A DNA stretch of 64,000 nucleotides. Source: Gammaproteobacteria bacterium. GTDB lineage: Bacteria; Pseudomonadota; Gammaproteobacteria; Steroidobacterales; Rariloculaceae. The stretch is taken from positions 20,768 through 84,767 of the forward strand of contig JAJEFE010000077.1 of assembly GCA_022820625.1 (NCBI GenBank), read 5' to 3'. Shown here piece after piece: positions 29,717 through 59,074 of this stretch. The notes under the pieces are model-generated. The model was not told where the DNA came from. It worked only from the letters and a program-made list of their open reading frames with translations, and did not search any database. Both the position numbers and the translations under genes were made by a program. Numbering within the stretch: the stretch's first letter is position 1; each line of letters starts with the position of its first letter.

Positions 29717-29727
29717 TTGTACTACCA
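29717..29727. promoter_or_regulatory. candidate GntR/FadR-type operator TTGTACTACCA
   Basis: Lies in the divergent intergenic region between the hydrolase-E1 operon and the amidohydrolase operon. A weaker ATGTTCTACTC lies at 29664..29674. Confidence 0.45.
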
Positions 29728-29747
29728 TTTTGGAAAAGGAGTCCCGA

Positions 29748-31070: not shown

Positions 31071-31081
31071 GAACGAAGCGC

Positions 31082-32748: not shown

Positions 32749-32750
32749 CG

Positions 32751-39034: not shown

Positions 39035-40192
39035 TCAGGATGTAGTCCGAAGCAGGGATCGTGCAATGATCGATCGCTGAATTTCGCTGGTCCCTTCATA
39101 AATTGACGTTACGCGTACGTCGCGTGCGTAGCGTTCCAGCGGGCATTCCTGAACGTAGCCGTAGCCGCCAAGCATCTGGATAGCCGTATAACAGGCGCGA
39201 TTCGCCGCCTCGGACGCAAACACTTTCGCCATGGACGCCTCTCTGGCGTAGGACAGGCCGGACTCCTTGCGGTAAGCGGCGCTCATGATCAAGAGGCGCG
39301 CGGCCTCAAGTTCCGTATAGGCGTCGGCAAGCTGCCAGCGCAATCCCTGGAAATCGCTGATCGGGCGGCCGAATTGCCGGCGCTCCACGATGTAATCGCG
39401 CGCGTAATCCATCGCTGCCAGTCCGATGCCCAGCGCGAGAGAGGCTATGCCTATGCGCCCGCCAGCCAATTCTCTCATTGCAATTCGATATCCGTCATTC
39501 TCTTTGCCGAGCATTGCATCGGCCGGCAATCTACACCGATTGAACCCAACCGCGTTGGTAGCCGAGCCGCGCTGGCCCATTTTCTTCTCGGCCTTGCTGA
39601 TCGACACTCCCGGCGTGGACGGTTCCACGAGGAAGCAGGAGATTCCCTTGCCGGACGGAGCTTGCCGGTTCGTGACAGCCCAGACAACCAACACGCCGGC
39701 ATACTCCGCACTGGAAATCCACATCTTTTCGCCGGTGACGATCCACTCGTCGCCATCCCGTACCGCGGTTGTTTTCATGGATGCCGGATCGGAGCCCGCT
39801 CCGGTTTCCGACAGGCAGAAGGCCGCGGCCCTGTATTGACCGGAGCAAATCCGGGGCAGGTATCGCTCCTTTTGCGGACTGCTTCCAACGGCCTGGATGA
39901 CTTCCGCAACCATATTGGTCACCGAGGTCGTGACTGCGGTCGACGCGCACGCCCTGGCGAGTTCCGTGATGGCAAGGCTGAATGCGACCGTACCGGCTTG
40001 CGCGCCGCCAAACTCTGCGTCGACGTTCAGTCCCATGAAGCCGAGTTCGGCGAGTTCGCGGAGATTGTCAAGAAACTGGCCGGTTTCGCGATTCCGGTCC
40101 AGAGCCGCGGCGACCGGCGCCAACTCACTCGTTGCGAATCGTTCTGCCGCCTCCTGGATAATGCGTTGTTCTTCGGTCAGCGAGAAGTCCAT
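39035..40192 (-). CDS. acyl-CoA dehydrogenase
   Basis: 385 aa. Sequence MDFSLTEEQRIIQE..., SETGAGSDPASMKT, and C-terminal YEGTSEIQRSIIAR. Confidence 0.9.
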   Translation of the reverse strand: MDFSLTEEQRIIQEAAERFATSELAPVAAALDRNRETGQFLDNLRELAELGFMGLNVDAEFGGAQAGTVAFSLAITELARACASTAVTTSVTNMVAEVIQAVGSSPQKERYLPRICSGQYRAAAFCLSETGAGSDPASMKTTAVRDGDEWIVTGEKMWISSAEYAGVLVVWAVTNRQAPSGKGISCFLVEPSTPGVSISKAEKKMGQRGSATNAVGFNRCRLPADAMLGKENDGYRIAMRELAGGRIGIASLALGIGLAAMDYARDYIVERRQFGRPISDFQGLRWQLADAYTELEAARLLIMSAAYRKESGLSYAREASMAKVFASEAANRACYTAIQMLGGYGYVQECPLERYARDVRVTSIYEGTSEIQRSIIARSLLRTTS

Positions 40193-40239
40193 AAGACCCT
40201 ATTTCGACATTGTGTCCGACACCCAGGTCTGAAGCGGGG

Positions 40240-43200
40240 CTACATGTTGCGGCGGTATTCGCCGCCCACGGCATAAAGGGCATGGGAGATCTGGCCAAGT
40301 GAACTGCACCTGACCGTGTCCATGAGTTCCGCGAAGACATTGCCCCGCGCCCGCGCGACCTGCTGAAGGTTTTCCAGCGCCGTGGCCGACCCTTCCGCGT
40401 GCGCGGCCTGGAACGCCCTGACGTTGCGGATCTGTGCCCGCTTTTCTTCCACGGTGGAGCGAATGAGTTCCCTGCCGCGGGACTCGTCCTCCTGTCCGGC
40501 CTCGGGCAGGAAGGTGTTGACGCCGACAATGGGAAACGATCCGTCATGCTTGCGGCTTTCGTAGTAGAGGCTCTCGTCCTGGATCTTGCCGCGTTGGTAC
40601 ATCCTGTCCATGGCGCCGAGCACGCCTCCGCGTTCGGAGATTCGCTCGAATTCCCGGTAGACAGCTTCCTCCACCAGGTCCGTCAGTTCATCGGCGATGA
40701 ACGAACCCTGCAAGGCGTTTTCGCAGTAGTTGAGCCCCAGTTCCCTGGCGATGATCAACTGGATGGCCACGGCACGGCGCACCGAATGCTCGGTGGGCGT
40801 CGTGATGGCTTCGTCGAAGGCGTTGGTGTGCAGGCTGTTGCAGTTGTCGAGGAGCGCGTACAGCGCCTGCAGGGTCGTGCGGATGTCGTTGAAGGAGATT
40901 TCCTGGGCGTGCAGGCTGCGGCCGGACGTCTGGATGTGGTACTTGAGCATCTGGCTGCGGGCGTTGGCGCCGTATCGCTCCCGCATGGCGCGTGCCCAGA
41001 TGCGCCGTGCCACCCGGCCGATGACCGTGTATTCCGGGTCCATGCCATTGGAGAAGAAGAAGCTCAGGTTGGGCGCGAAAGCGTCGATGTCCATGCCGCG
41101 GGCCAGGTAGTACTCGACGATGGTGAAGCCGTTGGCCAGCGTGAAGGCGAGCTGGCTGATGGGATTGGCGCCTGCTTCGGCGATGTGATAGCCGCTGATG
41201 GATACGCTGTAGTAGTTGGCGACGCAATTGTCGATAAAGTACTGCTGCACGTCGCCCATCATCTTCATGGCGAATTCGGTGGAGAAGATGCAGGTGTTCT
41301 GCGCCTGGTCTTCCTTGAGGATGTCTGCCTGGACCGTTCCCCGGACCGATGCCAGCGTGGCCGCGCGTATCTTCTCGTAGGTCTCCGCGGGGACGAGCCG
41401 GTCGCCCGAGATCCCGAGCAGCGCGAGGCCGAGTCCGTCGTTGCCGGAAGGCAACTCGCCCGCATATCGCGGTCGCTCCCGGTCGGCGAACCAGGATTCG
41501 ATCTTTTTCTCCGCCTTTGTCCACGCGCCAGTTTCCCGCAGGTGTTTCTCCACCTGCTGATCGATCGCCGCGTTCATGAAGAACGCCAGGATCATTGGCG
41601 CGGGGCCGTTGATGGTCATGGACACGGAGGTCGCCGAATCGCAGAGGTCGAAACCCGAATACAGCTTCTTCATGTCATCCACGGTGGCGATGGAAACGCC
41701 CGAATTGCCGACCTTGCCGTAGATGTCCGGACGCTCGTGGGGATCCTCTCCATACAGCGTCACAGAATCGAATGCAGTGGAGAGACGCGATGCTTCGTGC
41801 CCGCGGGCCAGGTAGTGGAAGCGCCGGTTGGTCCGCTCCGGCGTCCCCTCGCCGGCAAACATCCGGGTCGGTTCCTCTGCGGCGCGCCGGTAGGGATAGA
41901 CTCCGGCTGTGTAGGGATAGGACCCGGGCAGGTTCTCCTTCATCAGGAACGTGAGCCGGTCGCCCCAGTCCCGCAGGTTCGGAACGGCGATCTTGGGTAT
42001 GTTCAGTCCGCTCAGGGATTGCCGGTAGTTGCTGCCCGTCACTTCCTTGCCGCGCACCCGGTAGCTGTAGTGCTCGTCCCGAGTTGTCTTTCTGCGTTCG
42101 GGCCAGGTTTCGAGCAGGTCGAGGGCTTCTGCGTCGAGTTCGTCGAGGGTCTCCTGGTAACGTCGCCGCAGCGCGGTTATCGAAGGATCCGACCCGCCCG
42201 AGAGCGCGGCCTGTCCAAAGCTGCCGAAAGGCTCCGGCAACTCGGAATCGCCGAGTTCCCGCAGCGCTTCATGGAGGTGCTGCAATCGACTTGCCGCTTT
42301 CGCACGGACCCGGACGGTTTCGTTGATTTCGCGTCCCTGTTCGCTGATTTCGGCGAGGTACCGAATTCGGTTTCCGGGTATGAGCGCCATCGCTCGCGGG
42401 GGGTCGGTGGGTACGTCCAACCCGGGATCCCACTGCGCGGCATCCAGCGAGAGCTTGTCGGCGACACGCCGGCAGAGTTCGATGAACATCCGTGTGAGCC
42501 CGGGATCGCCGAATTGGCTCGCAATGGTCGGGTAGACCGGGATGTCGTCGTCGGCGACATGAAACTGCAGCCGGTTTCTCTTCCACTGTTTGCGTATATC
42601 CCTCAGTGCATCCTCGGCGCTGCGCTGGTCGTACTTGTTGAGCACGACGAGGCCGGCGTAGTCGAGCATGTCGATCTTTTCGAGTTGGCTGGCCGCACCG
42701 TAATCGCCGGTCATGACGTAAAGGGAGAAGTCCACCACATCCACGATCTCGGTGTCGCTCTGACCGATGCCCGCGGTTTCCACCAGCACCAGATCGAATC
42801 CCAGCGACTGCATGAACAGTATCTGGTCGCCCAGCACGCGGCTGGTGGCCAGGTGCTGACGGCGCGTCGCGAGGGAACGCATGAAGACCCTGGGCGAGCG
42901 CAGTGAATTCAGGCGGATGCGGTCGGCCAGCAGCGCTCCGCCGGTGCGCCGGCGCGTCGGATCCACGGCGAGCACGGCCACGCGCATGGCCGGGAAGCAG
43001 GCGAGCAGGCGGTTGAGGATCTCGTCGGTGACGCTGCTCTTGCCTGCACCGCCAGTCCCGGTGATGCCGATCACGGGCACCGCAGCCGAGGCGCCACTCC
43101 AGCGTTTGCGCAGCGCTGCCATTTCGGCTGTGCCGAACAGCCCGCACTCGATGGCGGACATCGTACGTGCGACCGCCACCTCGTCTTCCAGGCCTTCCGC

Positions 43201-43767
43201 GGCCCCTGGCGCGGCCGTAGCAGAGGCCAGGGTCAATTGTGTGCCGGTCCGGGCGTCAGTCTCCGAAACAGGCGAGGCGACCGAAACACGATGGGCCCGG
43301 GTGCGCTCGATCAGGTCGCCGATCATGGCATCAAGCCCCAGGGACATGCCGTCGTTGGGGTGGTAGATGCGTTCCACCCCGTACGCCATGAGTTCGTCGA
43401 TCTCGTCCGGCGTGATCGTTCCCCCGCCGCCGCCGAAGACGCGGATGTGTCCCGCGCCAAACTCCTCGAGCCGGTCGATCATGTAACGGAAGAACTCCAT
43501 GTGGCCGCCCTGATAGGAGCTCACGGCGATGCCGTCGGCGTCCTCCTGGATCGCGGCGCGCACGATCTCGTCCACGCCGCGATTGTGGCCGAGATGGATG
43601 ACCTCGACGCCATGGTTCTGAATCAGCCGCCGCATGATGTTGATCGCCGCGTCATGCCCGTCGAACAGGGAAGCCGCAGTGATGAAGCGAAGCGGCAGGG
43701 TGGTATCGCCCCCCAGGGAATCCGGAAGTTTTCCGGTTGCGGAATCAGGTCTGGGTACCGCGATCAT
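40240..43767 (-). CDS. icmF: fused isobutyryl-CoA mutase (B12-binding domain + MeaB-like GTPase + mutase catalytic domain)
   Basis: 1175 aa. N-terminal B12 domain ([13 protein letters not shown], DxHxxG-type). P-loop [13 protein letters not shown]-terminal methylmalonyl-CoA-mutase-like barrel. Confidence 0.85.
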
Positions 43768-43859: not shown

Positions 43860-43921
43860 CTTAGATTCCTGAAATGGGCAACCGTTCCCGGGCCGCTTCC
43901 CCAGTCACTACGACGGTGTGG

Positions 43922-46186
43922 TCAGAAAAACCACTGCCCCTGCAAAGCGAGCTGCCGCGGACGCTTGAGCAGGGCGAAATGTGCCTGGTTGCCGGCCAGC
44001 GGGTTTGACGCATTCCACTCCTTCACGAATACGTTGCTGAGGTTGCGTCCCACCAGCGCGACGCGCCACCGACCGTCTCCGCCTCCCACGCCGATACGTC
44101 CGTCCAGCATCGCATAGGAATCCTGGTACGTGTTCGGATCCGCATTGGAGTTGATGACGTATTCGGTGGTAAAGAACACGTCCGCGCGCCAGAAGAATTC
44201 CAGGTTGTTCTGCAGCGGGCGGTTGTAGTTCAGGCCGATCGTGCCGGAGATGTCGGGGGCGAATTGCAGCGGCGTGCCCGACTGGTCCTGGATGCGGTTG
44301 ATGCAGCCCTCTGCCTCTGTTTGAAACGGGTAGCAGGCCCCGGTAGTAAACACGTCGAAATTGGCGTCCAGCAGACTCAGGTAGGCGCTGACGGTGAGAT
44401 TCTCGGTTGCGGCCCAGTCGAAGTCCGCCTCCAGGCCCTGGGATAGCGCCGACCCGGCGTTCTGGGTGACGAACGTAAGTGCGTCGGCATCGAACGTCGC
44501 GACCTGCAGGTTGTCGATTTCGCTGCGAAACAGCGCCAGGTTGAGCCGCGCCGCGCCGTCGGCCAGCGTGCTCTTGGCGCCCAGTTCGTAAGCGACGACG
44601 TTTTCGGCATCGATCGGGCGGTCGAGCGCCGGAACGCCCGGCTGGTGGTTGTTGGCCCCGGCCTTGAAGCCTTTCTTGTAGCTGGCGTACAGCATCCTGT
44701 CGTCATCGGGAAACCATTCGGCCGTGATGGATGGCTGGAAGGCCGATTCGGTGTATTGCTGGTTGCGAGTGAACGTCATGCCCGCATTCTGGGGATTGTC
44801 CATCCACGGCCGTGTGGCAACGACCATGACCCGCCAGTCCTGCGCGTATACGTTGACCTTGTCGACCTCGGTATAACGTCCCGCCAGCTTCAGGTTGACG
44901 GAATCCCCGGCCTGAAACTCGACCTCGCCGAACGCCGCCCAGGAGTCGCCGTCCTCGTCGTTGTCCCTGATGACGAGCATCGCCATGGGGCCATTCGGGA
45001 ATATCGAGTTCCGGGTAAAGTTGATGTTGTTGTTCGAATCCATGTACACGCCGGCGAGCCAGTTCAGGGGTCCGTCGGCATTCGACGTGAAGCGCAATTC
45101 CTGACTGAACTGGTCGTATTCCTCGACGAAGTTCGCGACACCGAAGTCGGTTTCGCTGTGGGACGGATCCGCGAAAAACATGTTGGTGAAGTCGTAGTAG
45201 CCAGTGATCGAATTCACCGTGAAGGCATCGAGATCCCAGTCGATGCCGAGCATCGTCGAGGTCATCTCGAAATCGTAGAAGTTGTTGTCGCCCGCGGTGA
45301 CGAACAGTTCGCCCACGCGGATGAAGAAATTGTCCGGATGATTCGCCGGGTCGGCCCAGCTCGACCGGGTTTCGTTGAAGATGCAGTCTTCGAGATTCCG
45401 GTCGATCACCGCCTCCCATGCCGGCGAGCAGTTGACGGTCTGGGTGTTGCGGCCCTCCCAGAAGACGTTCATGGTTTCGAGCTTTGCATACACTTCCACG
45501 TTGTCGGCAGGGTTCCAGACGGCGCTGATCCGCGCCAGTTCGTCTTCCTGGGTCGGTTCCTTGCGGCCGTTGGCCATGTTGTTGACCCAGCCGTCCAGGC
45601 GGCGGACCTTGGCGGCGGCGCGGACGCCGAAGGTGTCGCTGAGGGGGCCACCGGCGGCGGCCGTGAGAACGGTTTCGTCGTGTTCGAATTCCCGATAGAG
45701 ATCGATGTAGCCTTCGAACTCATTGCCGGGGCGGCGGGAAGTGACATTGATGGCGCCGGCCGTTGCGTTCTTGCCGAGATACGTCGGCTGCGGACCCTTG
45801 AGTACTTCGAGCCGTTCGACGTCCAGGTAGGCGATGCGCGTGCCGCGCGCACGGCCCCAGTAAACGCCGTCGATGTAGAACGGCGCCGAATTCTCGAAAC
45901 CGAAGTTGCCGCTGGACTGGCCGACCCCGCGGATGAAGGCGTTGTCGTTCATGCCGCCCTGGGCAATGTTGACCCCGGGAATGTTCATGTCGTAGAAGTT
46001 GCTGATGGAGTAGTCCGTCAACAGGACGCCATCCACCGTGTTGATCGCCAGCGGGACCTCCTGCAGGGATTCCTCCCGCTTGGTCGCCGTGACGACGATT
46101 TCCTCAAGTTGCTGGCCCGCGGCGGGCAGCGCGAACACGCCGCAACCCGCGGCCAATATCAGTAAACGCGTGCATCGTGAATGCAT
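43922..46186 (-). CDS. TonB-dependent receptor
   Basis: ATG at 46186 preceded by GGGGAGAAG. Signal peptide LLILAAGCGVFALPAAGQ. Plug EEIVVTATKREESLQEVPLAIN. C-terminal ...LQGQWFF. Confidence 0.9.
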   Translation of the reverse strand: MHSRCTRLLILAAGCGVFALPAAGQQLEEIVVTATKREESLQEVPLAINTVDGVLLTDYSISNFYDMNIPGVNIAQGGMNDNAFIRGVGQSSGNFGFENSAPFYIDGVYWGRARGTRIAYLDVERLEVLKGPQPTYLGKNATAGAINVTSRRPGNEFEGYIDLYREFEHDETVLTAAAGGPLSDTFGVRAAAKVRRLDGWVNNMANGRKEPTQEDELARISAVWNPADNVEVYAKLETMNVFWEGRNTQTVNCSPAWEAVIDRNLEDCIFNETRSSWADPANHPDNFFIRVGELFVTAGDNNFYDFEMTSTMLGIDWDLDAFTVNSITGYYDFTNMFFADPSHSETDFGVANFVEEYDQFSQELRFTSNADGPLNWLAGVYMDSNNNINFTRNSIFPNGPMAMLVIRDNDEDGDSWAAFGEVEFQAGDSVNLKLAGRYTEVDKVNVYAQDWRVMVVATRPWMDNPQNAGMTFTRNQQYTESAFQPSITAEWFPDDDRMLYASYKKGFKAGANNHQPGVPALDRPIDAENVVAYELGAKSTLADGAARLNLALFRSEIDNLQVATFDADALTFVTQNAGSALSQGLEADFDWAATENLTVSAYLSLLDANFDVFTTGACYPFQTEAEGCINRIQDQSGTPLQFAPDISGTIGLNYNRPLQNNLEFFWRADVFFTTEYVINSNADPNTYQDSYAMLDGRIGVGGGDGRWRVALVGRNLSNVFVKEWNASNPLAGNQAHFALLKRPRQLALQGQWFF

Positions 46187-46268
46187 GACTTCTCCCCTGG
46201 ATTTGCGGCGGCAATTCTCTCGTACAGTGTTGGAACAAGGCAACAGAGGCTCTTGGTGAAGAAAAAAC

Positions 46269-46279
46269 TTGTACTACAA
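46269..46279. promoter_or_regulatory. candidate GntR/FadR-type operator, perfect palindrome TTGTACTACAA
   Basis: TTGTA-C-TACAA, 83 nt upstream of the TBDR ATG, in an AT-rich stretch. Confidence 0.5.
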
Positions 46280-46331
46280 AATTTAGAAAATAGCAAGGTT
46301 TTCACACCAATTATGGCGATTGACCTGCACA

Positions 46332-46342
46332 TTGTTGTACAG
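46332..46342. promoter_or_regulatory. candidate GntR/FadR-type operator TTGTTGTACAG
   Basis: Second site in the same promoter region. It shares TTGTTGTACA with 9854..9864. Confidence 0.4.
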
Positions 46343-46358
46343 GGCGCCGTCTGTGTCC

Positions 46359-46379
46359 GGCGCTACTATCTGTAGCGCC
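46359..46379 (-). terminator. hairpin GGCGCTAC-N5-GTAGCGCC downstream of the ASST gene
   Basis: Perfect 8-bp stem about 76 nt after the stop of 46455..48167. No U-tract. Confidence 0.3.
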
Positions 46380-46454
46380 GCCAAGTCCCCACCGCGCGGC
46401 CGTTGGTGCGGCGAATGCGTGCGGACTAACCTCAGACATTTCGCCGCAATTGAT

Positions 46455-48167
46455 CTAATGCGCTGCAGGCAAGTCCGGCCGGTGATAGACGTCCGGGCTC
46501 CTGAATCCGCCGTAGAGTTCCCAGTGGTTCAAATCGAAGTAGGGGACAGCCTCCATCCGGAACACCACGTCGTCACCGTCGTATTCGACGACGCGTCCGC
46601 CATAGGGGAGGTCTCCGGTTGAACGGCGGGTCTCGTCCATGCTGTCCTGCGTGATGTTCTCCAGTTGCGGCAGGCAGAAGGCGAAGATGACGAGGTAGTT
46701 GTCGGTGACCGGCAAGCGCCAGGCGTCGCTCATGGCGTTGGCGAAGCAGGCGTCCTCGTGGACGCTGTCGCCCGAGGTCCACACTTGTCGAACGGTCATG
46801 TTCTCTTCGTCCACTTCGTATTCGACGCCGCGGCTGAAGTTCTCCGGCAGCGGCAGGCGCGGCTCGAAGGGCATGGCGCCGCCGTGGGCGCGGTTGTCGA
46901 ACAGGATCACCGTGCCGGCGTGGGTCATGCGCGGGTTGTGCTGATAGCCGGGCCACAACAGGTCGCCGACCGGCGTGAGCAGTTTGTCCTGGAGGTTCTC
47001 CGGCCAGCCGTCGTGGCGTCCGAGAATCCACTTGATGTCGCGGGTCTGGTAATCCACCTTGACGATGGCATTCTGGTTTCGCAGCGATACCAGGACCGAG
47101 TCGTCCGAGGAGTCGTAGCTCAGTCCGTTGGCGTGGGTCCAGTCCATGTAGTCGGGGAAGCCGCGCACCCACCAGTAACTCCAGAAGGTGTCGTAGCCCA
47201 CCCGGAAGGGGTCCAGGGTGCCGTAGGTGTCCCAGGTCCAGACGGTTTCACCCTCGGGCGTGAACTGCACGACGGTATCGGCCATGACGATCTGGTCGGT
47301 ACGCGGTGCGTTCGGGTCGCTGTCGCTGCTGTAGTAGTCCTCGATGAGGTACCCGTTGGCGGAGAAGGCCAGGAAATCGCCGTTGGGCATCTCGTGGGGC
47401 TGGTGATGCAGGGTCTGCTGGCCGAGAATGGGAATGGCATCGGGATTCTCGGGCGGGGGGAAGGGCCTTTCCTCGGCGTAGAACTGCCGTACGACGTTGC
47501 CCAGCAGGTCGATTTCCACGGTGGAGAAGTCCGTGCGGTGCATGAGTATGTTGCCGTTGGAGAGGCGGGCGATTCCTGCCGTCCTGAAGTCCGAGTTGTA
47601 GTACCAGATGACGTCGCCGCGCGCATCGAGCGCCAGCAGCATGCCCCAATCCTCGGAAAAATCCCGCTGCCTTTCGGTCAGCCAGTGGGCGCGCCCCAGG
47701 GCCCGCCGGCGCACGCTCAGGAAGGTCACTCCGGGTTCCATGCGCTCGGGGATCGAGATCTGGATGTCCAGATCGGGGAATTCCAGCGGGTTGGCGGGCA
47801 GGTCCGGCGTGATATGGGGCCAGGTTTCCGTGTGTTGTTCGCCGTCTGCCCCGGTGATCGCGAGCGTAATCGTGTGTTCGCGCCCCGGCCGCATGCCTGC
47901 GACCGGCAACAAGTAGCGTCCATCCCGGGCGATCCCGGCGTCGAATTCCGCCTCCCAGCTGTTCGCGCCGTCGCTGATGGACAGCCGGGATTCCGCCGCC
48001 TGATCGAGACTGAACCCGATCGCCGCCGCAAGGGGCACGCGGCCGGTCGGGTTGGCGGTGAGCGTGGGCGCTTCCACGAAGCTCAGTTGCGCCCATCCGG
48101 TGCCCAGGGGCAACGCAAACAGCGCGGCCGTCGTGATGATCCGAAGCCATGATTGTCTGATGTCCAT
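46455..48167 (-). CDS. secreted aryl-sulfate sulfotransferase (ASST)-like beta-propeller protein
   Basis: 570 aa. Signal peptide ITTAALFALPLGTGWAQ. Motifs LHHQPHEMPNGD, DWTHANG and YQHNPR. Confidence 0.8.
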   Translation of the reverse strand: MDIRQSWLRIITTAALFALPLGTGWAQLSFVEAPTLTANPTGRVPLAAAIGFSLDQAAESRLSISDGANSWEAEFDAGIARDGRYLLPVAGMRPGREHTITLAITGADGEQHTETWPHITPDLPANPLEFPDLDIQISIPERMEPGVTFLSVRRRALGRAHWLTERQRDFSEDWGMLLALDARGDVIWYYNSDFRTAGIARLSNGNILMHRTDFSTVEIDLLGNVVRQFYAEERPFPPPENPDAIPILGQQTLHHQPHEMPNGDFLAFSANGYLIEDYYSSDSDPNAPRTDQIVMADTVVQFTPEGETVWTWDTYGTLDPFRVGYDTFWSYWWVRGFPDYMDWTHANGLSYDSSDDSVLVSLRNQNAIVKVDYQTRDIKWILGRHDGWPENLQDKLLTPVGDLLWPGYQHNPRMTHAGTVILFDNRAHGGAMPFEPRLPLPENFSRGVEYEVDEENMTVRQVWTSGDSVHEDACFANAMSDAWRLPVTDNYLVIFAFCLPQLENITQDSMDETRRSTGDLPYGGRVVEYDGDDVVFRMEAVPYFDLNHWELYGGFRSPDVYHRPDLPAAH

Positions 48168-48200
48168 CGATTGAACTCCTGGTCAGTTCGAAGAGAATTG

Positions 48201-49214
48201 TCAGTAAATGATCGACAGTTTCCCGATCATGCTGCGCGCCTCCAGCTTTGCATGCGCCTGGCGCAGCGTCGCGGCGGAAAGCCCGTGCAGGGTCCTGGTG
48301 AGGGTGCTGCGGATCTCGCCGGCCTCGACCCTGTCGGCAAGCTGCTCGAGAATCCGGTGCTGGCGCCGCATTGTATCGGTTGCGAAGATGGGCCGCGTCG
48401 ACATGTGCTCCCACGCAAACGTCACGCTCTTGAGCATGAGCTTGCGAAGATCCACCGGCCGTTCGGAGCCGACGATGCAGGCGATCTTGCCTTCCGGCGC
48501 AATCAGCTCGGCCATTGCGTCCCAGTGTTCGGCCGTGTCGGCGCAGTTCAGGATGTAGTCGACGTGCTCGAATCCCGCTTCCCGCACGGAGTCCACGAGG
48601 GAGTGGTGATTGGCGACCCGGTCCGCGCCCATCTCCAGGCACCAGTCACGGCTGGCAGGCCGCGATGCCGAGGCGATCACCTTCATCCCGGCCAGGCGTT
48701 TGGCCAGTTGAATCGCGATGGAACCAACGCCTCCGGCCCCGCCAATGATGAGTAAGGTGTGCGAAGTGCCCGGTGACTGCGAAATTCCGAGCCGTTCGAA
48801 GAGCGCTTCCCACGCGGTAATCGCCGTGAGCGGGAGCGCGGCGGCTTCCGCCGGTTCCAGGTTCTTCGGGCGGCGGCCCACGATGCGTTCGTCCATGACC
48901 TGGTACTCGGCATTGCTTCCCGAACGGTCGATGCTGCCGGCGTACCAGACCTTGTCGCCAGGGCCGAAAAGATGTGCTTCCGGGCCTGCCTCAGTAACGG
49001 TCCCGGCAGCGTCAAAGCCCAGAATCAGGGGTCGTTCGAGCGGCTCTTCGGTGGCGGCTCGGCGCCGCCGCAACGTGTCCACGGGATTGACCGACACGGC
49101 CTCGACCCTGATCAGGAGTTCGCGGGGACCCGGCACGGGAACCGGCGTCTCGTAGTCCATGAGGCAACGTTGATCCTCCACGGGCAGGGAGCGTGTAAAG
49201 GCCACGGCTCTCAT
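48201..49214 (-). CDS. zinc-binding alcohol dehydrogenase family / quinone-oxidoreductase-like MDR protein
   Basis: 337 aa. Motifs ...LIRVEAVSVNPVD... and IIGGAGGVGSIAIQLAK. Confidence 0.85.
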   Translation of the reverse strand: MRAVAFTRSLPVEDQRCLMDYETPVPVPGPRELLIRVEAVSVNPVDTLRRRRAATEEPLERPLILGFDAAGTVTEAGPEAHLFGPGDKVWYAGSIDRSGSNAEYQVMDERIVGRRPKNLEPAEAAALPLTAITAWEALFERLGISQSPGTSHTLLIIGGAGGVGSIAIQLAKRLAGMKVIASASRPASRDWCLEMGADRVANHHSLVDSVREAGFEHVDYILNCADTAEHWDAMAELIAPEGKIACIVGSERPVDLRKLMLKSVTFAWEHMSTRPIFATDTMRRQHRILEQLADRVEAGEIRSTLTRTLHGLSAATLRQAHAKLEARSMIGKLSIIY

Positions 49215-49480
49215 CGCACCCGATTTCCTTCCGACAGCAGTTGGTCAGCGTATATTGTCGCACGGAAACATCGGGCAAACGCTCCAAAAGTTGAACAGAC
49301 TGCAATCGGGGCCTTAGCTGCCATATGGGAAAACAATTAATTTTCAGTAAGTTAGAAAAACGCGTCTTCAGGGACGATTGAACACACGAAACAAATGTAC
49401 AACAATACGGAGTCCGGCAAAAGATTGGCCGAAAAAAGATTCGGTGCGTTCGCCGAACCATTCGGCAAGGGATCCCACGG

Positions 49481-50590
49481 ATGGCATATTTCGCAACCGC
49501 AGCGATCGTTCGCGAACCTGGCGGACAATTCTCGCTGGAGCGGGTGGAACTCGATGCCCTGCGCGAATACGAAGTTCTTGTTCGTATCGAAGCATGCGGG
49601 ATCTGTCATACCGATGCGAAGTTCCAGAGCCGCGTTCCATTGCCCGGCGTCTTCGGGCACGAAGGCGCGGGCGTCGTGGAGGAAACCGGTGGTGCCGTCA
49701 CTTCCGTGCGTGCGGGCGACCGGGTCATCATTTCCTATCCCTGGTGCGGGGCCTGCCCATACTGCGAACGGGCGGAACCGTTCAAGTGCGAGAACATCCC
49801 GGCGCTCAAGTTTGCCGGGCAACGCAGTGACGGCAGCCGCACCGTGCGGCTGAATGGGGAGGCTGTGAGCAGCGCTTTTTTCCAGCAGTCTTCATTTGCG
49901 ACGCGCGCCATTGCGCTCGAGCACGCACTTGTTCCCGCGGCCAACAGTATGGCCCCGGAAATGCTGGCCGCGCTGCCTTGCGGGGTACAGACGGGTGCCG
50001 GTGCGGTGATGAATACCTTCGCAATGGGTCCCGAGGACAGTCTGGTGGTGTTCGGGGTCGGTACGGTGGGCCTTAGCGCGATCATGGCAGCCCGGGTAGC
50101 GGGCGTTTCCACAAGAATTGCCGTGGACATCAACCTCTCGCGGCTGGCTCGTGCCAGGGACCTCGGCGCGACTCATGCTCTTGACGCCAGCGAGGACGAT
50201 GTGCCGCGCCGTGTGTGGGAATGGCTGCCTCGCGGGGCCAGTCATGCCCTGGAAAGTTCGATCACGGCATCGGCCCTTGACGATGCGGTGCGGTGCCTCG
50301 GCCAGGGCGGCAAGGTCGGAATATTCAGCGGACCACCGCCGGGCGAAGAGTTCCGTTTCTCCACCCGCGAACTGTTCCAGCGGGTCGGGAGCTTGCACGG
50401 CATCATCCAGGGGTCGGCGGTACCGGGCGAATTCCTGCCGTGGCTCATGGAATTGCAGCGTGCCGGCCGGTTTCCCTACGAGCGGCTGATCAGCACTTAC
50501 GACTTCGCGGACATCAATCGCGCATTCGCGGATCTTGAAGATGGTATCGCGATCAAGCCTGTCCTGGTGTTTCCGCAGGAACAACCATGA
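49481..50590 (+). CDS. NAD-dependent aryl/benzyl-alcohol-dehydrogenase-like Zn-ADH
   Basis: 369 aa. Motifs EACGICHTD, GHEGAGVVEE, structural-Zn CGACPYC and VFGVGTVGLSA. Confidence 0.85.
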   Translation: MAYFATAAIVREPGGQFSLERVELDALREYEVLVRIEACGICHTDAKFQSRVPLPGVFGHEGAGVVEETGGAVTSVRAGDRVIISYPWCGACPYCERAEPFKCENIPALKFAGQRSDGSRTVRLNGEAVSSAFFQQSSFATRAIALEHALVPAANSMAPEMLAALPCGVQTGAGAVMNTFAMGPEDSLVVFGVGTVGLSAIMAARVAGVSTRIAVDINLSRLARARDLGATHALDASEDDVPRRVWEWLPRGASHALESSITASALDDAVRCLGQGGKVGIFSGPPPGEEFRFSTRELFQRVGSLHGIIQGSAVPGEFLPWLMELQRAGRFPYERLISTYDFADINRAFADLEDGIAIKPVLVFPQEQP

Positions 50591-51363
50591 GCCGCTTCCG
50601 GAACAAGGCCGCGATCGTGACCGGGGCGGCATCGGGGATCGGCCTGGCGACCGCGGAACGACTCGCGGCGGAAGGGGCCAGTGTGCTGCTGACGGATCTG
50701 AGCGAACAGGCTGGATCCGAGGCGGCGTGTCGGCTCGGGGCCACGGCCAGGTTCAGGGCGCACGATGCCGCCTCCGAGTCGGATTGGGAGTCCGTGGTTG
50801 CCGACTGCGTGAATGAATTCGGGCGTCTGGACGTGCTCGTCAACAACGCAGGCGTCGCCTTTCTTGCCGGTCAGCTTCCGCCGGAGGATTTGACGCTGGA
50901 GGAATGGAACCGGGTCAATGCGGTCAATGCCGCAGGCGTGATGCTGGGCTGCAAACATGCGATCCGGACCATGAAGGCCACCGGCGGCGGCGCCATCGTC
51001 AATATCGCCTCGGTGGCCGCGACGGTGGCTTCTCCGCTGGCGGTACCGTACGGCGCCAGCAAGGCTGCCGTCGTGCAACTGACCAAGACTGTGGCGTTCG
51101 ATTGTGCGCGGCGCGGCTACGAAATCCGCTGCAATGCGGTCCTGCCCGGGACGATCGAAACCACCCTCTACAAGACCTTCAGCGAAGAACAACGCGCCGC
51201 CAATGCCAGGAGCGTGCCCGTTGGCCGCCTGGGTACGCCCGAAGACGTGGCAATGGCGGTGGCATTTCTGGCAAGCGACGACGCCCGCTACATTACGGGC
51301 GCCCAGCTTGCGGTGGATGGCGGGTTATCCGCCGTAAATCCCATGCGGGCGGACGACGGGTAG
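50587..51363 (+). CDS. SDR-family oxidoreductase
   Basis: 258 aa. Motifs TGAASGIGLA, NNAG and YGASKAA. Overlaps the ADH stop by 4 nt. Confidence 0.9.
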   Translation: MSRFRNKAAIVTGAASGIGLATAERLAAEGASVLLTDLSEQAGSEAACRLGATARFRAHDAASESDWESVVADCVNEFGRLDVLVNNAGVAFLAGQLPPEDLTLEEWNRVNAVNAAGVMLGCKHAIRTMKATGGGAIVNIASVAATVASPLAVPYGASKAAVVQLTKTVAFDCARRGYEIRCNAVLPGTIETTLYKTFSEEQRAANARSVPVGRLGTPEDVAMAVAFLASDDARYITGAQLAVDGGLSAVNPMRADDG

Positions 51364-51387
51364 CAGACTGAACCAACGGAGGACATC

Positions 51388-52830
51388 GTGACATTGGAAG
51401 GTCGTCACTGGATCGGCGGGGAGTGGGTCGGATCGGCCGGGGGCGCCGAGGCCGAGAGCGAGAACCCGAGTACCGGGGAACGGCTTGGCCGGTTCGCCGA
51501 CGCCGGGCTCGCCGACGCCGACGCCGCAATCGGCATCGCGCGCGAGACGTTCGAGACGTCTTCGTGGGCACACCAGCCCCGGGTGCGAGCCCAGGTGTTG
51601 CTGCAGTTCGCCGATCGCCTGGAAAGTCGAAAGGCCGATATCGCCCGGGCGCTGGCACGGGAAAACGGCAAGCTCATCGGCGAAGCCACGCACGAGGTAG
51701 CCGCGGGCATCTCGGAGCTACGCTACTACGCCGGGCTCGCGCGGAACATCTTCGGCCGCGTCACCGAGGTGGACCACCATCAGTATTCCATGCTGGCCCG
51801 GGAACCCATGGGCGTTGCCGGCATCATCGTGCCCTGGAACGCGCCGATCACGTTGCTGATCCGGTCGCTGGCCCCTTGCATGGCGGCAGGATGCACGGCG
51901 GTGGTCAAGGCCGCGCCGCAAACCGCCCTGGTGAACGCCGAAGTTTTCGCGATGCTGGCGGACATCGACGGACTGCCCCCAGGCGTCGTCAACATGCTGG
52001 CGGAGACGGGCAGCGACGTGGCCAGGCGGCTCGTGACCTCGCCGGAAGTAGACGTGATCTCCTATACCGGCAGCACGGAAGTAGGCAAGCGGATCATGGC
52101 GGCCGGCGCCGATACGCTCAAACGCATGAACCTGGAACTGGGCGGCAGCGCGCCCTGTGTCGTCTTTGCCGATGCCGACCTGGATGCGGCTGCCGCGGGC
52201 ATCGCCCGCACGGGAATGGCCCACGCGGGCCAGGTCTGTGTGGCCGCAAGTCGCGTGCTTGCGGAGGAGTCCGTCGCAGGGGCGCTGCAGGCGCGCCTGG
52301 CGGAGCGGCTCGGCGCCTTGCGTCTCGGCGTCGCCGACGACCCCCGCAGCGGCCTCGGGCCGCTCATCGACCGGGCCAGTCAGGCGCGTATGGAACGATT
52401 GGTGGACGAGGCACGAGGTCTTGGCGAGATGATTCTCACCGGCAGTGCTCCCGTCGGAGCGCTTTCCTCCGGATGCTTCATCGGTCCCAGCCTGGTACGA
52501 GTGGAAGACTCCGGCCACGCACTCCTGGACCAGGAAATCTTCGGTCCGCTCCTTACCGTGGATACCTTTGCAGACGAGGAGGAGGCGGTGGCGCAAGCCA
52601 ACGACACTCGCTTCGGCCTGGCCGCCAGCGTGTGGACGACTGACCAGCAGCGCGGCCTGCGCCTGGCGTCCCGGATCAAGAGCGGTACGGTCTGGATCAA
52701 CGCCCACATGAAGCTGCACGCTGAAATCGAGACCGGAGGCTACCGCGAGAGCGGAATCGGACGCTTGCACGGCGTGGAGGGGCTGGATGAATTCCTCCAG
52801 ACCAAGCACATTTCCTGGCAGACGGCGTAA
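51388..52830 (+). CDS. NAD(P)-dependent aldehyde dehydrogenase
   Basis: GTG at 51388 after ACGGAGGA. 480 aa. Motifs LELGGSAP and EEIFGP-like QEIFGP; catalytic Cys region HAGQVCVAASR. Confidence 0.9.
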   Translation: MTLEGRHWIGGEWVGSAGGAEAESENPSTGERLGRFADAGLADADAAIGIARETFETSSWAHQPRVRAQVLLQFADRLESRKADIARALARENGKLIGEATHEVAAGISELRYYAGLARNIFGRVTEVDHHQYSMLAREPMGVAGIIVPWNAPITLLIRSLAPCMAAGCTAVVKAAPQTALVNAEVFAMLADIDGLPPGVVNMLAETGSDVARRLVTSPEVDVISYTGSTEVGKRIMAAGADTLKRMNLELGGSAPCVVFADADLDAAAAGIARTGMAHAGQVCVAASRVLAEESVAGALQARLAERLGALRLGVADDPRSGLGPLIDRASQARMERLVDEARGLGEMILTGSAPVGALSSGCFIGPSLVRVEDSGHALLDQEIFGPLLTVDTFADEEEAVAQANDTRFGLAASVWTTDQQRGLRLASRIKSGTVWINAHMKLHAEIETGGYRESGIGRLHGVEGLDEFLQTKHISWQTA

Positions 52831-52958
52831 CTGCCGGGCATCCACCGTCACGGCGCCGGGGCTTGCACGGAACTGAAAGATGTTGAAACTCCACCATCAC
52901 GGTTCTTCCGTCTGCGCCGCCGCCGAAATCGAATCTTCACATCGCTGAATGCAGGAAG

Positions 52959-53933
52959 ATGACGACGCGAAGCCAGTCCATGAGACGTGAGGAGTACATC
53001 GATCTCTACCGGACCATGGTCCGGATCCGCGTTTTCGAGGAGACCGTGCGCCGCTACCATATCGCCGGCAAGGCGCCCGGCCTGGTACACCTGTGCACGG
53101 GGCAGGAGGCAGTGCCAGCCGGTTTCATTTCCGTGCTCAGGCCGGACGACTTCATCACCATCTACCATCGCGGCCACGGTCATTGCATCGCCAAGGGATC
53201 TTCGCTGGAGGCGCTTCTGGGCGAGCTGTTGCATCGCCGGGGTGGGGTGAACCTGGGGCGGGCGGGCGAACCGCACCTGTGCGATCCTGCCACCAACAAC
53301 ATCGGTTCCACCGGAATTGTCGGCGGCAGCGTGCCCCTGGCAGCCGGGGCGGCGCTGGCTGCCCAGCTTCGCGGCACTGACCAGGTGTCGGTGAGCTTCT
53401 TCGGTGACGGCGTGCTCAACCAGGGCGTGATGTTCGAGGTGCTGAACATGGCGGCCATCTGGTCCCTGCCGGTGGTCTTCGTCTGCGAGGACAACCGCTA
53501 CGGCGAGTTCACCGAAAGCGCGACGGTGACGGCAGGGGAACGCTACCAGGATCGCGGCGCCGTCTTCGGAATTCCCTCGGATACCCTGGACGGAATGGAT
53601 GTGCTGGCGGTTTGCGAGGCCGCCGAGTCGGCGGTGGGCCGGGCACGGCGCGGCGAGGGACCGAGTTTTCTGGTATTCGAAACCTACCGGTTCACCGGCC
53701 ATCACGTGAGCGACCAGCAGGAATACAAGGACAGCGAGGAGATTCGCGCCTGGAAAGCACGCGACCCGATCCCGAACTACGCCCGCTGGCTTGCGGAGAA
53801 AGGCCACATGGATGACGCGGCCATCGCCCGCATACACTCCGAAATCGACGACGAAGTGGAGGCGGCCGCCAAGGTCGCCGATTCGATGCCTCACCCCGGA
53901 CCCGAGGATCTCGGGACACATGTGTTTGCCTAG
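52959..53933 (+). CDS. TPP-dependent 2-oxoacid/acetoin dehydrogenase E1 alpha subunit (pair 1)
   Basis: 324 aa. Motifs YHRGHGHCIAKG and FFGDGVLNQG...FVCEDNRYG. Confidence 0.9.
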   Translation: MTTRSQSMRREEYIDLYRTMVRIRVFEETVRRYHIAGKAPGLVHLCTGQEAVPAGFISVLRPDDFITIYHRGHGHCIAKGSSLEALLGELLHRRGGVNLGRAGEPHLCDPATNNIGSTGIVGGSVPLAAGAALAAQLRGTDQVSVSFFGDGVLNQGVMFEVLNMAAIWSLPVVFVCEDNRYGEFTESATVTAGERYQDRGAVFGIPSDTLDGMDVLAVCEAAESAVGRARRGEGPSFLVFETYRFTGHHVSDQQEYKDSEEIRAWKARDPIPNYARWLAEKGHMDDAAIARIHSEIDDEVEAAAKVADSMPHPGPEDLGTHVFA

Positions 53934-53956
53934 GCGGCAGCCCATGCCCGTGCGCC

Positions 53957-54943
53957 ATGCAGCAGACTGAGCGGCAGATCAGCCTGAAAGCGGCGGTCAT
54001 CGAGGCCATCGCCGAGGAATTCAGGCGCGACCCCGAGACGTTCTACATCGGCGAGGACGTGGGCGTGGCCGAGGGCATCTTCAAGCAGACCCAGGGATTG
54101 CACGCAGAATTCGGCGACAGGCGCGTGATCGATACGCCCATTTCGGAAGCCGGAATGTTCGGCCTGACGGTGGGGGCTGCGGTCGCCGGCATGCGGCCCA
54201 TCGTGGAGATCATGTTCAGCGATTTCCTGACGCTGGTGATGGATCAACTGGTCAACCACGCCGCCAAGATTCATTACCTTTCAGGCGGGGGGTTCAGGGT
54301 ACCGCTGGTGCTGCGGACCGCCATCGGCGTGGGAGGCGTTCTTGGCTCCACCCACTCGCAGACTCTGTACGCCTGGCCGGCGCATGTCCCCGGCCTCAAG
54401 CTCGCGGCCCCGTCCACGCCTGCGGACGCCAAGGGCCTGATGACGGCGGCAATCCGCGACGATAACCCGGTCCTGTACTTTGAGGACCGCATGACCTACA
54501 ACCTCAAGGGGCCGGTGCCGGAGGGCGAGCACATTGTCGAACTGGGTGTGGCCGACATCAAGCGCAAGGGCAGCGACGTGACGCTGATCGCGTTTTCCCG
54601 CATGGTGCACGTGGCGCTGGAGGCGGCGGACGCGCTTGCCGCGAAGGGCATCAGCGCGGAGGTGGTGGATCCGCGATCCATCGTCCCTCTGGATACCGAA
54701 ACGCTGATTGATTCGGTGGCCAGGACCGGCCGCGCCGTGGTGATCGACGGCGGACACGAGCTCTACGGTATCGGCGCCGAGGTTGCCGCGACCGTTGCCG
54801 AGGGCGCCTTCGACTACCTCGATGCACCGGTGATGCGGATCGGCGCACCCCACAACCCGGTACCGTGCAGCAAGCCGCTGGAAGCGATGATGGTGCCGAG
54901 TGCCGATCAGGTCGTGGCGAAGGTCGAACGGATGTACGGATGA
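53957..54943 (+). CDS. E1 beta subunit (pair 1)
   Basis: 328 aa. Motifs FYIGEDVG and RVIDTPISEAGMFGLTVGAA. Confidence 0.9.
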   Translation: MQQTERQISLKAAVIEAIAEEFRRDPETFYIGEDVGVAEGIFKQTQGLHAEFGDRRVIDTPISEAGMFGLTVGAAVAGMRPIVEIMFSDFLTLVMDQLVNHAAKIHYLSGGGFRVPLVLRTAIGVGGVLGSTHSQTLYAWPAHVPGLKLAAPSTPADAKGLMTAAIRDDNPVLYFEDRMTYNLKGPVPEGEHIVELGVADIKRKGSDVTLIAFSRMVHVALEAADALAAKGISAEVVDPRSIVPLDTETLIDSVARTGRAVVIDGGHELYGIGAEVAATVAEGAFDYLDAPVMRIGAPHNPVPCSKPLEAMMVPSADQVVAKVERMYG

Positions 54944-55020
54944 GAACGAATGCGTGAAACGACTCGAGGCGGACAGGCGCGCAGGCGGACATATGCCGGC
55001 CGCTACGGAACCATTGACCA

Positions 55021-56037: not shown

Positions 56038-56056
56038 TGGCCGGGGGAGATTCGCG

Positions 56057-57034: not shown

Positions 57035-57091
57035 GAGGCCCGCAATTGGATACCCTCCGTGAGATATTCGCAATGAGAGGTCCGCAATTCC

Positions 57092-59063: not shown

Positions 59064-59074
59064 CTGTACTACAT
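59064..59074. promoter_or_regulatory. candidate GntR/FadR-type operator CTGTACTACAT
   Basis: The core TGTACTACA is a perfect palindrome. It lies 51 nt upstream of the ASST ATG at 59125. Confidence 0.45.

Follow-up and report, generated by a model that had tools for sequence, protein, structure and literature searches.

Results

Five aryl-sulfate sulfotransferase-family proteins in one window

The stretch of DNA considered here, a 64,000-nt window of contig JAJEFE010000077.1 (assembly GCA_022820625.1; GC ~63%), encodes five proteins of the aryl-sulfate sulfotransferase (ASST) family, three of one subtype (A1, A2 and A3) and two of another (B1 and B2), together with two TonB-dependent receptors (TBDR773 and TBDR990), carriers of the major facilitator superfamily (MFS), a GntR-type regulator, a sulfatase and a series of oxidative and transaminating enzymes (Table 1). 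Genes were mapped from lists of open reading frames (ORFs), a screen of GC content at third codon positions (GC3) and Pfam matches. An earlier note, made from the letters of the window, had proposed that the ASSTs and TonB-dependent receptors (TBDRs) form an uptake and sulfo-transfer system for sulfated phenolics. All five propellers score above the PF05935 gathering threshold of 24.2 bits, so that five family members do lie within 50 kb, as proposed, and the propellers belong to the ASST family and not to unrelated ones.

The catalytic set of ASSTs comprises His252, His356, Asn358, Arg374 and His436 in Escherichia coli AssT numbering (PMC10932419). All five window proteins retain equivalents of His252, His356, Asn358 and His436, and the conserved motifs correspond to the E. 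coli active site: LHHQP to His252, DWTH.NG to His356 and Asn358, and QHNPR to His436. Alignment of A2 with E. coli AssT (PDB 3ELQ; phmmer and a 14-sequence profile) places H345, N347 and R363 on His356, Asn358 and Arg374, and H410 on His436, the sulfuryl-carrying residue, a column in which the H436N mutant entry 4P04 has Asn. Residues H254, H255, H345, N347 and H410 (A2 numbering) are invariant among 14 A-type sequences. A1 and A2 retain the equivalent of Arg374, A3 has Lys instead, and in B1 and B2 the column is not conserved.

The B-type proteins are more distant. When B1 was compared with the A-type profile by hhalign, 312 columns were aligned (probability 89%, E 2e-6), and the B1 motifs HHDF, HANG and QHDP coincided with the same three A-type histidines. 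The B2 family comprises more than 2600 homologs, all with PF05935, and keeps H142/H143, H245, N247 and H332, the last of which is invariant in 24 sequences and aligns to the catalytic His by both hhalign and BLAST. An AlphaFold2 (AF2) model of B2 is an all-beta propeller (pLDDT 80, pTM 0.84), and its best fold match in the PDB is Cpz4 (9KF4/9KF6; E 5.5e-14, TM 0.52-0.60); a phmmer search of B2 against PDB sequences gave no match, the Cpz4 link coming from the fold search only. Given the PF05935 scores, the retained catalytic residues and the B2 fold, the ASST family assignment stands for all five proteins, and we predict sulfotransferase function for them from family and residues. Identities are low (A2-A3 46%, A2-A1 42%, B1-B2 27%), and therefore A1/A2/A3 and B1/B2 are old paralogs and not recent duplicates. 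The three A-type proteins, described earlier as close paralogs, do have active-site motifs in common, although they are only 42-46% identical and the proposed common motif H[GQ]HNPR fits inexactly, A2 reading YQHNPR.

By eye, and without a predictor, A2, A3 and B1 were judged to carry Sec-type signal peptides. A1 has none, and is therefore predicted to be cytoplasmic; its first codon shares bases with the stop codon of the upstream P450 gene, and its N-terminus resembles those of cytoplasmic alpha-type ASSTs. No DsbL/DsbI-like genes were seen beside any ASST paralog. Ahead of its propeller, B1 carries an EF-hand pair (12830-13300) with a weak lanmodulin-like match, which suggests a periplasmic metal-binding module.

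Linkage of A2 to a TonB-dependent receptor

Both receptors have plug and barrel domains and an N-terminal signal peptide. A2 lies directly upstream of TBDR773 on the same strand, as had been claimed, including the likely start codon at 46186, and the two genes are separated by 211-268 bp. Behind the A2 stop codon lies a stem-loop (~46365-46390), and TBDR773 has an operator-flanked promoter of its own; A2 and TBDR773 thus read as separate co-controlled units and not as one operon. The earlier statement that two paralogs sit next to TBDRs holds for A2 only. TBDR990 does follow the GntR-sulfatase-MFS genes, as stated, with no ASST beside it.

Directly downstream of TBDR773, genes for an IcmF-type fused isobutyryl-CoA mutase and an acyl-CoA dehydrogenase (ACAD) occupy 39035-43767 on the minus strand; the IcmF-type protein (1175 aa) has B12-binding, MeaB GTPase and mutase domains. 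A reading of TBDR773 as a cobalamin-riboswitch-controlled, BtuB-like receptor, considered for its position beside the B12-dependent IcmF, was dropped because no Rfam model reached its gathering threshold anywhere in the window.

An operator shared by the ASST and receptor promoters

Reading of the intergenic regions revealed a recurrent palindrome, TTGTA-C-TACAA, and a variant, TTGTACAACAA, which a generic direct-repeat search of the window did not reveal. The word TGTANTACA is present in 2 copies versus 0.05 expected, and the 11-mer with up to 2 mismatches in 15 versus 2.4 expected. These sites fall in five promoter regions (Table 1), two of which carry pairs 63-64 bp apart; the pair ahead of TBDR773 (46269/46332) flanks a promoter-like core, CTTGCTATTTTC. 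When a position weight matrix (PWM) was built from distant loci only, its top matches in the window were the seven intergenic sites. No PWM match was found in the window before B2, before the GntR-sulfatase-MFS_b-TBDR990 cluster or before a pair of genes for a class III aminotransferase and a sodium:solute symporter family (SSF) protein, and a scan for sigma-70 and terminator consensus sequences around A2 and TBDR773 was uninformative.

The core, TTGTAGTACAA, recurs unchanged in IR1 of DgoR, a GntR/FadR repressor of the E. coli D-galactonate genes with two sites per promoter; the IR1 operator in the dgo promoter reads CTAAATTGTAGTACAACAATAT (PMC11705089). The window thus resembles the DgoR system in core and in pairing, although the genes controlled are unrelated to dgo, the DgoR sites are closely spaced unlike the window pairs, and the window GntR matches the DgoR structure entry 7C7E weakly (E 2.6e-7). 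The two constituents of a GntR/FadR regulon, a palindromic, here predicted, operator in the target promoters and a regulator with winged helix-turn-helix (wHTH) and FCD domains, are both present, and the GntR+FCD protein at 32086-32748 is our candidate repressor for this operator. Its orthologs (41-63% identity) adjoin an ASST in at least 13 loci of other genomes.

A scan of metagenome contigs for paired operators returned 70 contigs, mostly AT-rich and unrelated, only one of them with a recognisable regulon gene, an aldehyde dehydrogenase (ALDH) gene in contig L145 at a distance of over 5 kb from the paired operators. Such matches are at chance level for the size of the database and therefore uninformative.

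Conservation across proteobacterial genomes

A contig scan seeded with the A-type alignment yielded 260 relatives, and the best 80 matches gave 77 loci with flanks of +/-10 kb (numbered with the prefix L), in which neighbouring genes were labelled by jackhmmer with the window proteins and gene starts were estimated from alignments. The loci are not independent phylogenetically (one clade unites L001-L003 with L013, another L004-L008), and the nearest relatives among those kept are metagenome-assembled genomes of Candidatus (Ca.) Rariloculaceae, a gammaproteobacterial family, at 92-97% amino-acid identity.

Of the 36 loci of gamma-, beta- or Caulobacterales-type, 29 have a TBDR no more than 10 kb from the ASST; the distance is at most 3 kb in 20 loci and at most 500 bp in 11. 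In the 41 other loci, mostly from Rhodospirillales, Rhizobiales and Rhodobacterales, no TBDR was found, and in 8 of them a sulfatase lies within 500 bp. The operator follows the same division: the 36 gamma-type loci hold 88 sites versus 7.3 +/- 3.3 in shuffled sequences, an approximately twelve-fold enrichment, whereas the 41 others are not enriched (7 versus 4.3). Zones from -300 to +30 around labelled gene starts make up 10.5% of the sequence and contain 76 of the 88 sites. By gene class, 41 sites belong to TBDRs (21 loci), 21 to ASSTs (13 loci), 12 to ALDHs (6 loci), 7 to class III aminotransferases (6 loci), 5 to alcohol dehydrogenases (ADHs; 5 loci) and 5 to GntR regulators (3 loci).

TBDR and ASST genes are combined in at least five layouts (tandem, divergent, convergent, overlapping, or 1-3 kb apart). 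Several unrelated TBDR families are involved, one of them a 17-member orthologous group across gamma and beta lineages, and orthologs of TBDR773 adjoin an ASST in L013, L002, L022 and L024. Among the close relatives of the window, the ADH-to-E2 block and the order of ASST followed by TBDR are kept, while QOR, A3, the ACAD and one E1 pair vary; A3, for example, has an ortholog in L002 (78% identity) and none in L003. The receptor itself also changes. The TBDR after the A2 ortholog in L001 (11867-14452) and L003 (11874-14459) is of another family, 27-30% identical to TBDR773, and L002 has both types (11712-14321 and 16979-19258), with the promoter-operator cassette conserved ahead of three different TBDR genes. 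This looks like a cassette-like exchange of receptors behind a conserved promoter-operator.

The remaining genes recur as well. L022 and L027 unite an ASST, a TBDR, an MFS_b-type carrier, a GntR regulator and a sulfatase in single clusters, in L022 with the MFS_b ortholog directly after a TBDR773-type receptor and in L027 with the addition of ADH, ALDH, two E1 alpha/beta pairs, E2 and E3, so that the ADH-to-E2 set is again found beside ASST, MFS, GntR, TBDR and sulfatase. By this synteny elsewhere, and only by it, the sulfatase cluster of the window is tied to the module. Orthologs of MFS_a (40-44% identity) occur in operons of class III aminotransferase-MFS-ADH or ASST-MFS type (L007, L008, L015, L016, L019, L020, L021), and those of E1 alpha (57-67% identity) adjoin an ASST in L014, L028, L029, L031, L033, L064, L071 and L074; in L020 a class IV aminotransferase is divergent from ALDH-ASST-MFS.

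Three different sulfatase subfamilies recur beside ASSTs, and a gene for formylglycine-generating enzyme (FGE) stands beside the ASST in L038. The canonical maturation motif CxPxR was found in 29 of 35 neighbouring sulfatase ORFs with a detectable motif, as opposed to C-M-S-N-R in the window sulfatase and C-M-S-S-R in its L010 ortholog (3589-5211); no gene for FGE or for the anaerobic sulfatase-maturating enzyme (anSME) was seen in the window. By eye, the ASSTs of the TBDR-bearing gamma/beta-type loci have Sec or lipoprotein signals, and several TBDR-less alpha-type ASSTs have, like A1, only 11-13 residues before the domain and no signal. Exported ASSTs thus seem to accompany TBDRs, and cytoplasmic ASSTs sulfatases only.

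The shared, conserved operator and the recurrent TBDR adjacency support, in silico, both co-regulation and co-conservation of the ASSTs with TBDRs. Each had been implied by the earlier note, and each finds support: the GntR/FadR-type operator links A1/B1, A2, A3 and TBDR773, and operator and TBDR adjacency recur in many proteobacterial ASST loci, with sulfatases as recurrent neighbours.

Two further proteins recur in these loci. One, of ~1100 aa with a spermidine-synthase-like domain, is found beside ASST-associated TBDRs (L007 3938-7270, L009 1679-4843, L014 1896-5264, L016 1340-4723, L024 8521-11952) and is absent from the window; the N-terminus of the L009 copy weakly resembles MFS proteins, at 28.9 bits versus a Pfam cutoff of 33.4, and the L016 copy was recognised solely by size and position. 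The other, a NAD_binding_8 protein of ~700 aa, recurs in L016 and L020.

Neighbouring genes and other features of the window

The ASST genes are embedded among catabolic-looking genes (Table 1). The ADH-to-E2 block, which also encodes a short-chain dehydrogenase/reductase (SDR), is conserved in L001-L003 and L013; QOR was found, among close relatives, only in the window and L001. MFS_a is a candidate inner-membrane carrier of the regulon. The PcaK-like transporter proposed earlier corresponds to MFS_b, whose best match is indeed the aromatic-acid:H+ symporter subfamily, below the cutoff of that model. An aryl-alcohol dehydrogenase found no support at equivalog level: NCBIfam gave no equivalog-level name for any ASST, nor for the ADH, ALDH, E1 or aminotransferase genes, and side-chain chemistry is therefore not assignable. 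No SusD-like or glycoside-hydrolase domains were found among the window genes scanned with Pfam.

The P450 gene contains five tandem copies of a 15-nt unit (10515-10611) that encode a GG(D/E)Sx low-complexity insert, and the Pfam P450 match spans only its C-terminal part. Directly after B1 lies a YhgA-like (Transposase_31) gene (14840-15850, minus strand; Pfam scan), followed by ~1.3 kb without a convincing gene (15900-17200), which may be a junction of acquired DNA. DUF3604 and DUF6152 genes, described as flanking B2, are at 23278-26272 and 63459-63920; in L024 a DUF3604 ortholog (6804-8690, 60% identity) adjoins an ASST and has an operator-like site at its start, and DUF6152 genes lie near the ASST in L073.

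Divergent from A3, a CMD/AhpD-like gene (58396-58941, minus strand) has an in-frame TGA in the context C-P-H-[TGA], at the place of the CxxC of its family. Translated through this codon, the product gives a PF02627 match (26 bits) that extends across it, and the hairpin after the UGA is statistically undistinctive (z = -0.65). The gene may be a candidate selenoprotein or a pseudogene. A candidate selenocysteine codon would fit with a SelD-like (selenophosphate-synthetase-like) gene in the same window (1088-3343, minus strand), a 751-aa fusion of pyridine-nucleotide-disulfide oxidoreductase and AIR-synthase-related domains.

Table 1. Genes and predicted operator sites of the 64,000-nt window, in order of position.
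Feature	Position	Strand	Assignment and remarks
MFS_a transporter	8533-9732	-	PF07690; divergent from P450-A1-B1
Operator pair, TTGTACTACTA and TTGTTGTACAA	9790-9800 and 9854-9864		Between MFS_a and P450-A1-B1; 64 bp apart; PWM 12.9 and 25.4
Cytochrome P450	9891-11198	+	PF00067; TIGR04515-like; likely start ATG near 9891, inferred from operator position
ASST A1	11195-12817	+	PF05935, 202 bits; His252, His356, Asn358, Arg374 and His436 equivalents kept
ASST-like B1	12830-14716	+	PF05935, 33.6 bits; Sec-type signal peptide; N-terminal EF-hand pair
ASST-like B2	21594-23189	+	PF05935, 47.6 bits; hydrophobic N-terminus; no operator found upstream
Alpha/beta-hydrolase (esterase) operon	26316-29620	-	Hydrolase 28643-29620; E1 alpha 27654-28646; E1 beta 26674-27645; lipoyl-domain protein 26316-26558
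Operator, TTGTACTACCA	29717-29727		Between esterase-E1 operon and amidohydrolase/class IV aminotransferase; PWM 18.0
Amidohydrolase	29730-31070	+	PF01979; signal-peptide-like N-terminus
Class IV aminotransferase	~31070-31996	+	PF01063
GntR/FadR-subfamily regulator	32086-32748	+	PF00392 (wHTH) and PF07729 (FCD)
Sulfatase	32706-34385	+	PF00884; arylsulfatase-like below cutoff; no signal peptide
MFS_b	34406-35725	+	Aromatic-acid:H+ symporter-like; TIGR00895 305 bits, below cutoff 418
TBDR990 (990 aa)	35939-38911	+	PF07715 plug and PF00593 barrel; no operator upstream (no PWM match)
TBDR773 (754 aa)	43922-46186 (ORF to 46243; likely start ATG 46186)	-	PF07715 plug and PF00593 barrel; signal peptide
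Operator pair, perfect palindrome TTGTACTACAA and TTGTTGTACAG	46269-46279 and 46332-46342		Upstream of TBDR773; 63 bp apart
ASST A2	46455-48167	-	PF05935, 215 bits; PF17425 N-terminal Ig-like domain and beta-propeller; Sec signal peptide
QOR, zinc-ADH/quinone-oxidoreductase family	48201-49214	-	TIGR02817 380 bits; upstream of A2
Operator, ATGTACAACAA	49395-49405		Divergent region QOR-A2/ADH; PWM 23.0; conserved in L001, L002, L003 and L013
ADH-SDR-ALDH-E1 alpha-E1 beta-E1 alpha-E1 beta-E2 block	49481-58423	+	Divergent from QOR-A2
Operator, CTGTACTACAT	59064-59074		61 bp upstream of A3 start codon; PWM 17.3
ASST A3	59125-60879 (alternative start 59095)	+	PF05935, 204 bits; Sec-type signal peptide; Lys at Arg374

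Source and transcription

Words sampled from 43900-49500 are 100% contained in one sponge-metagenome run, and related sequence is present in further metagenomes from sponges, corals and marine samples. Contigs assembled from four metatranscriptome runs (sponge, coral, marine; likeness at least 88%) cover TBDR773, A2 and QOR as well as stretches of the ADH-E2 block and sequence that runs from ahead of A3 into its 5' part; TBDR773 is covered in 3 runs. No exact match to A2 was found in the contig collection. A literature search on Rariloculus, or on ASSTs together with sponge symbionts, returned nothing, and a broader one led only to the work on gut ASSTs.

Discussion

Comparison with known systems

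E. coli CFT073 AssT (3ELQ/3ETT; EC 2.8.2.22) belongs to the same Pfam family as the window paralogs, shares the N-terminal Ig-like domain with A2 and, like A2 and A3, is exported; its catalytic set, Arg374 included, is kept in A1 and A2. Yet its phmmer alignment with A2 is a single stretch of ~130 residues (E 5e-16), and the Cys loop before its His436 is a gap in A2. E. coli AssT has dsbL/dsbI partners, whereas the window paralogs lack these, belong to a TBDR/GntR-operator regulon and include the predicted cytoplasmic A1; the combination of signal peptide, disulfide loop and dsbL-dsbI operon that characterises the E. coli-type enzymes is not seen among them. Cpz4, an ASST-type sulfotransferase of caprazamycin biosynthesis and the best fold match of the B2 model, is also a weak sequence match to A2. 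Its sequence identity to B2 is 15-16%, and it is an actinomycete biosynthetic tailoring enzyme, unlike B1 and B2 with their export signals and proteobacterial, catabolic-looking context.

Richness in ASST paralogs has precedent. The density of ASST genes, which the earlier note took to be undescribed, is matched by the 17 ASST genes of Sutterella wadsworthensis, which form no recognisable operons and of which only one lies near a tonB gene (PMC10932419). The physiological sulfo donors of ASSTs are unknown (PMC12809581, on BvASST of Phocaeicola vulgatus). As in the window, the Sutterella and Phocaeicola enzymes are present as many paralogs per genome, are mostly exported and conserve their active-site residues; unlike in Sutterella, the window paralogs are clustered in 50 kb, four of them have an operator in common, and they are TBDR-linked across many taxa.

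TBDR-centred catabolic loci are known, as the polysaccharide utilisation loci (PULs) of Bacteroidota and the CUT loci of proteobacteria. The window resembles them in bringing together, under predicted common control, a TBDR and periplasmic enzymes with a carrier for the inner membrane, predicted catabolism in the cytoplasm and a candidate repressor encoded nearby. It differs from PULs in having no SusD-like lipoprotein or glycoside hydrolases, ASST propellers taking the place of the periplasmic enzymes, and for want of a SusD-like partner it is not a strict PUL; the comparison with PULs made earlier is an analogy only. To our knowledge, ASST propellers have not been described in such loci. TBDR uptake of an aromatic compound does have a parallel in DdvT of Sphingobium SYK-6, which imports a lignin-derived biphenyl (PMC6874591). 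In our literature searches we found no description of a TBDR-ASST regulon, and we therefore rate the window as a TBDR-centred catabolic locus with ASSTs as its periplasmic enzymes. The regulon appears to be undescribed, although the paralog richness is not new.

A candidate catabolic regulon

With a confidence slightly on the favourable side of even, we read the window as a section of a catabolic regulon that its substrate induces and a GntR/FadR-type protein represses, in a sponge-associated gammaproteobacterium resembling Ca. Rariloculaceae. An exogenous phenolic (most likely an aryl sulfate ester) would cross the outer membrane through TBDR773. The exported A2 and A3, and probably B1, would then act in the periplasm through sulfo-histidine ping-pong chemistry, with the sulfuryl group being removed or relocated, and the product would be carried inward by an MFS protein. 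In the cytoplasm it would be processed by the P450 and A1, the aminotransferases, ADH, SDR, ALDH, the 2-oxoacid-dehydrogenase E1/E2 components and the sulfatase encoded nearby. The candidate GntR repressor would presumably respond to an effector connected with this substrate.

An intact ASST active site, three sulfatase subfamilies and the FGE gene of L038 link the module to sulfate esters. Class III/IV aminotransferases, an ALDH resembling aminobutyraldehyde dehydrogenases and the 2-oxoacid dehydrogenase E1/E2 give a hint of phenolic amines or amino-acid-like side chains, for example O-sulfates of tyrosine, tyramine or catecholamines. Of the system proposed earlier, family, co-regulation and TBDR linkage are thus supported, and algal or seagrass sulfated phenolics find no support as its substrates; the sequence derives from a sponge metagenome, and any hint from the partner enzymes is the one just given.

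Several observations weigh against this reading. Lys replaces Arg374 in A3, and Arg is not conserved in the B-type proteins. Neither B2 nor the GntR-sulfatase-MFS-TBDR990 cluster has the operator in the window, and what ties B2 to the module is synteny in other genomes, just as the regulator owes its assignment solely to family and synteny elsewhere. The operator is missing from ASST loci of betaproteobacteria and from most of those of alphaproteobacteria. The RNA contigs come from related strains, attest to presence only, are silent on regulation and could include carried-over DNA. The aryl-sulfate substrate is a proposal drawn from gene context. Finally, ASST chemistry is a transfer that depends on a phenol to receive the group, so that net desulfation is to be expected only if water or a recycled phenol serves as acceptor.

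A more ambitious version of the catabolic regulon, which we regard as doubtful though worth stating, would meet this last point: the ASST propellers may be the formylglycine-free, periplasmic sulfuryl-handling step of a widespread, TBDR-dependent organosulfate utilisation, in which they would strip imported aryl sulfates of the sulfuryl group, this perhaps being relayed to a carrier phenol that is imported by the aromatic-acid MFS protein and regenerated by the cytoplasmic sulfatase.

Alternative explanations

Two alternatives survive about equally well, both of them improbable in our judgement. Exported ASSTs might protect the cell by sulfating toxic periplasmic phenols, such as bromophenols and quinols from host or algae, with whatever aryl-sulfate donors are available, the TBDR supplying the donors or the export being irrelevant. 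Sponges are phenol-rich hosts. The window comes from a sponge metagenome and couples a P450 to A1, and characterised ASSTs sulfate many phenols and have been discussed as detoxifying (PMC12809581, PMC10932419). Yet the operator places an uptake receptor, MFS importers and a long oxidative and transaminating set under common control, which looks more like nutrient use than defence, and sulfatases, which reverse sulfation, are recurrent partners.

The substrate might instead be an amine or amino-acid-like compound, phenolic or not, on which the propellers perform other chemistry, such as arylsulfatase hydrolysis or another group transfer; this, too, we think unlikely. It would accommodate the same aminotransferases, ALDH and E1/E2 partners, the flavin/NAD-binding protein and the MFS-spermidine-synthase-like fusion found in loci elsewhere, and the lack of an Arg374 equivalent from A3, B1 and B2. 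In Campylobacter jejuni, moreover, the ASST homolog AstA is scored as an arylsulfatase. Against it, neither subfamily departs from the three histidines and the Asn of the sulfo-transfer site, and the sulfatases and FGE gene that recur as neighbours tie the module to sulfate esters.

That the module harvests sulfate from organosulfates for assimilation is very unlikely. ASSTs and sulfatases are combined in it, and similar ASST clusters occur in freshwater Limnohabitans, Rubrivivax and Ideonella, but the carrier of the window lives in seawater or sponge, where sulfate is plentiful, the operator is of GntR/FadR type with no sign of a sulfur-starvation signal, and the co-regulated genes encode enzymes of carbon skeletons. 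Least credible of all, and barely so, is that the paralogs and TBDRs are chance neighbours without a function in common: the variation of QOR, A3, the ACAD, one E1 pair and TBDR type around A2 in close relatives and the YhgA-like transposase gene do speak for a TBDR-rich, rearrangement-prone region, but the operator is enriched twelve-fold and sited at gene starts, and TBDRs of several families adjoin ASSTs in five or more arrangements, the promoter cassette being retained when the TBDR is swapped.

Implications

ASSTs have been known for decades, while their physiological role has stayed open. The catabolic regulon proposed here, with its conserved context (TBDR, exported ASST, MFS carrier, sulfatase, oxidative and transaminating enzymes), its operator and its candidate regulator, makes that role experimentally approachable, and a cultured carrier is available in Pseudomaricurvus alkylphenolicus KCTC 32386 (L020), in which GntR, ALDH-ASST-MFS and six operator sites are found. 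The finding bears on the turnover of sulfated aromatics by sponge and coral symbionts and by free-living marine bacteria, where the marine sulfur and carbon cycles are poorly charted. The more ambitious version, if true, would provide a first physiological role and natural donors for ASSTs, and marine Gammaproteobacteria and animal holobionts would be seen to turn over organosulfates by a route not described before.

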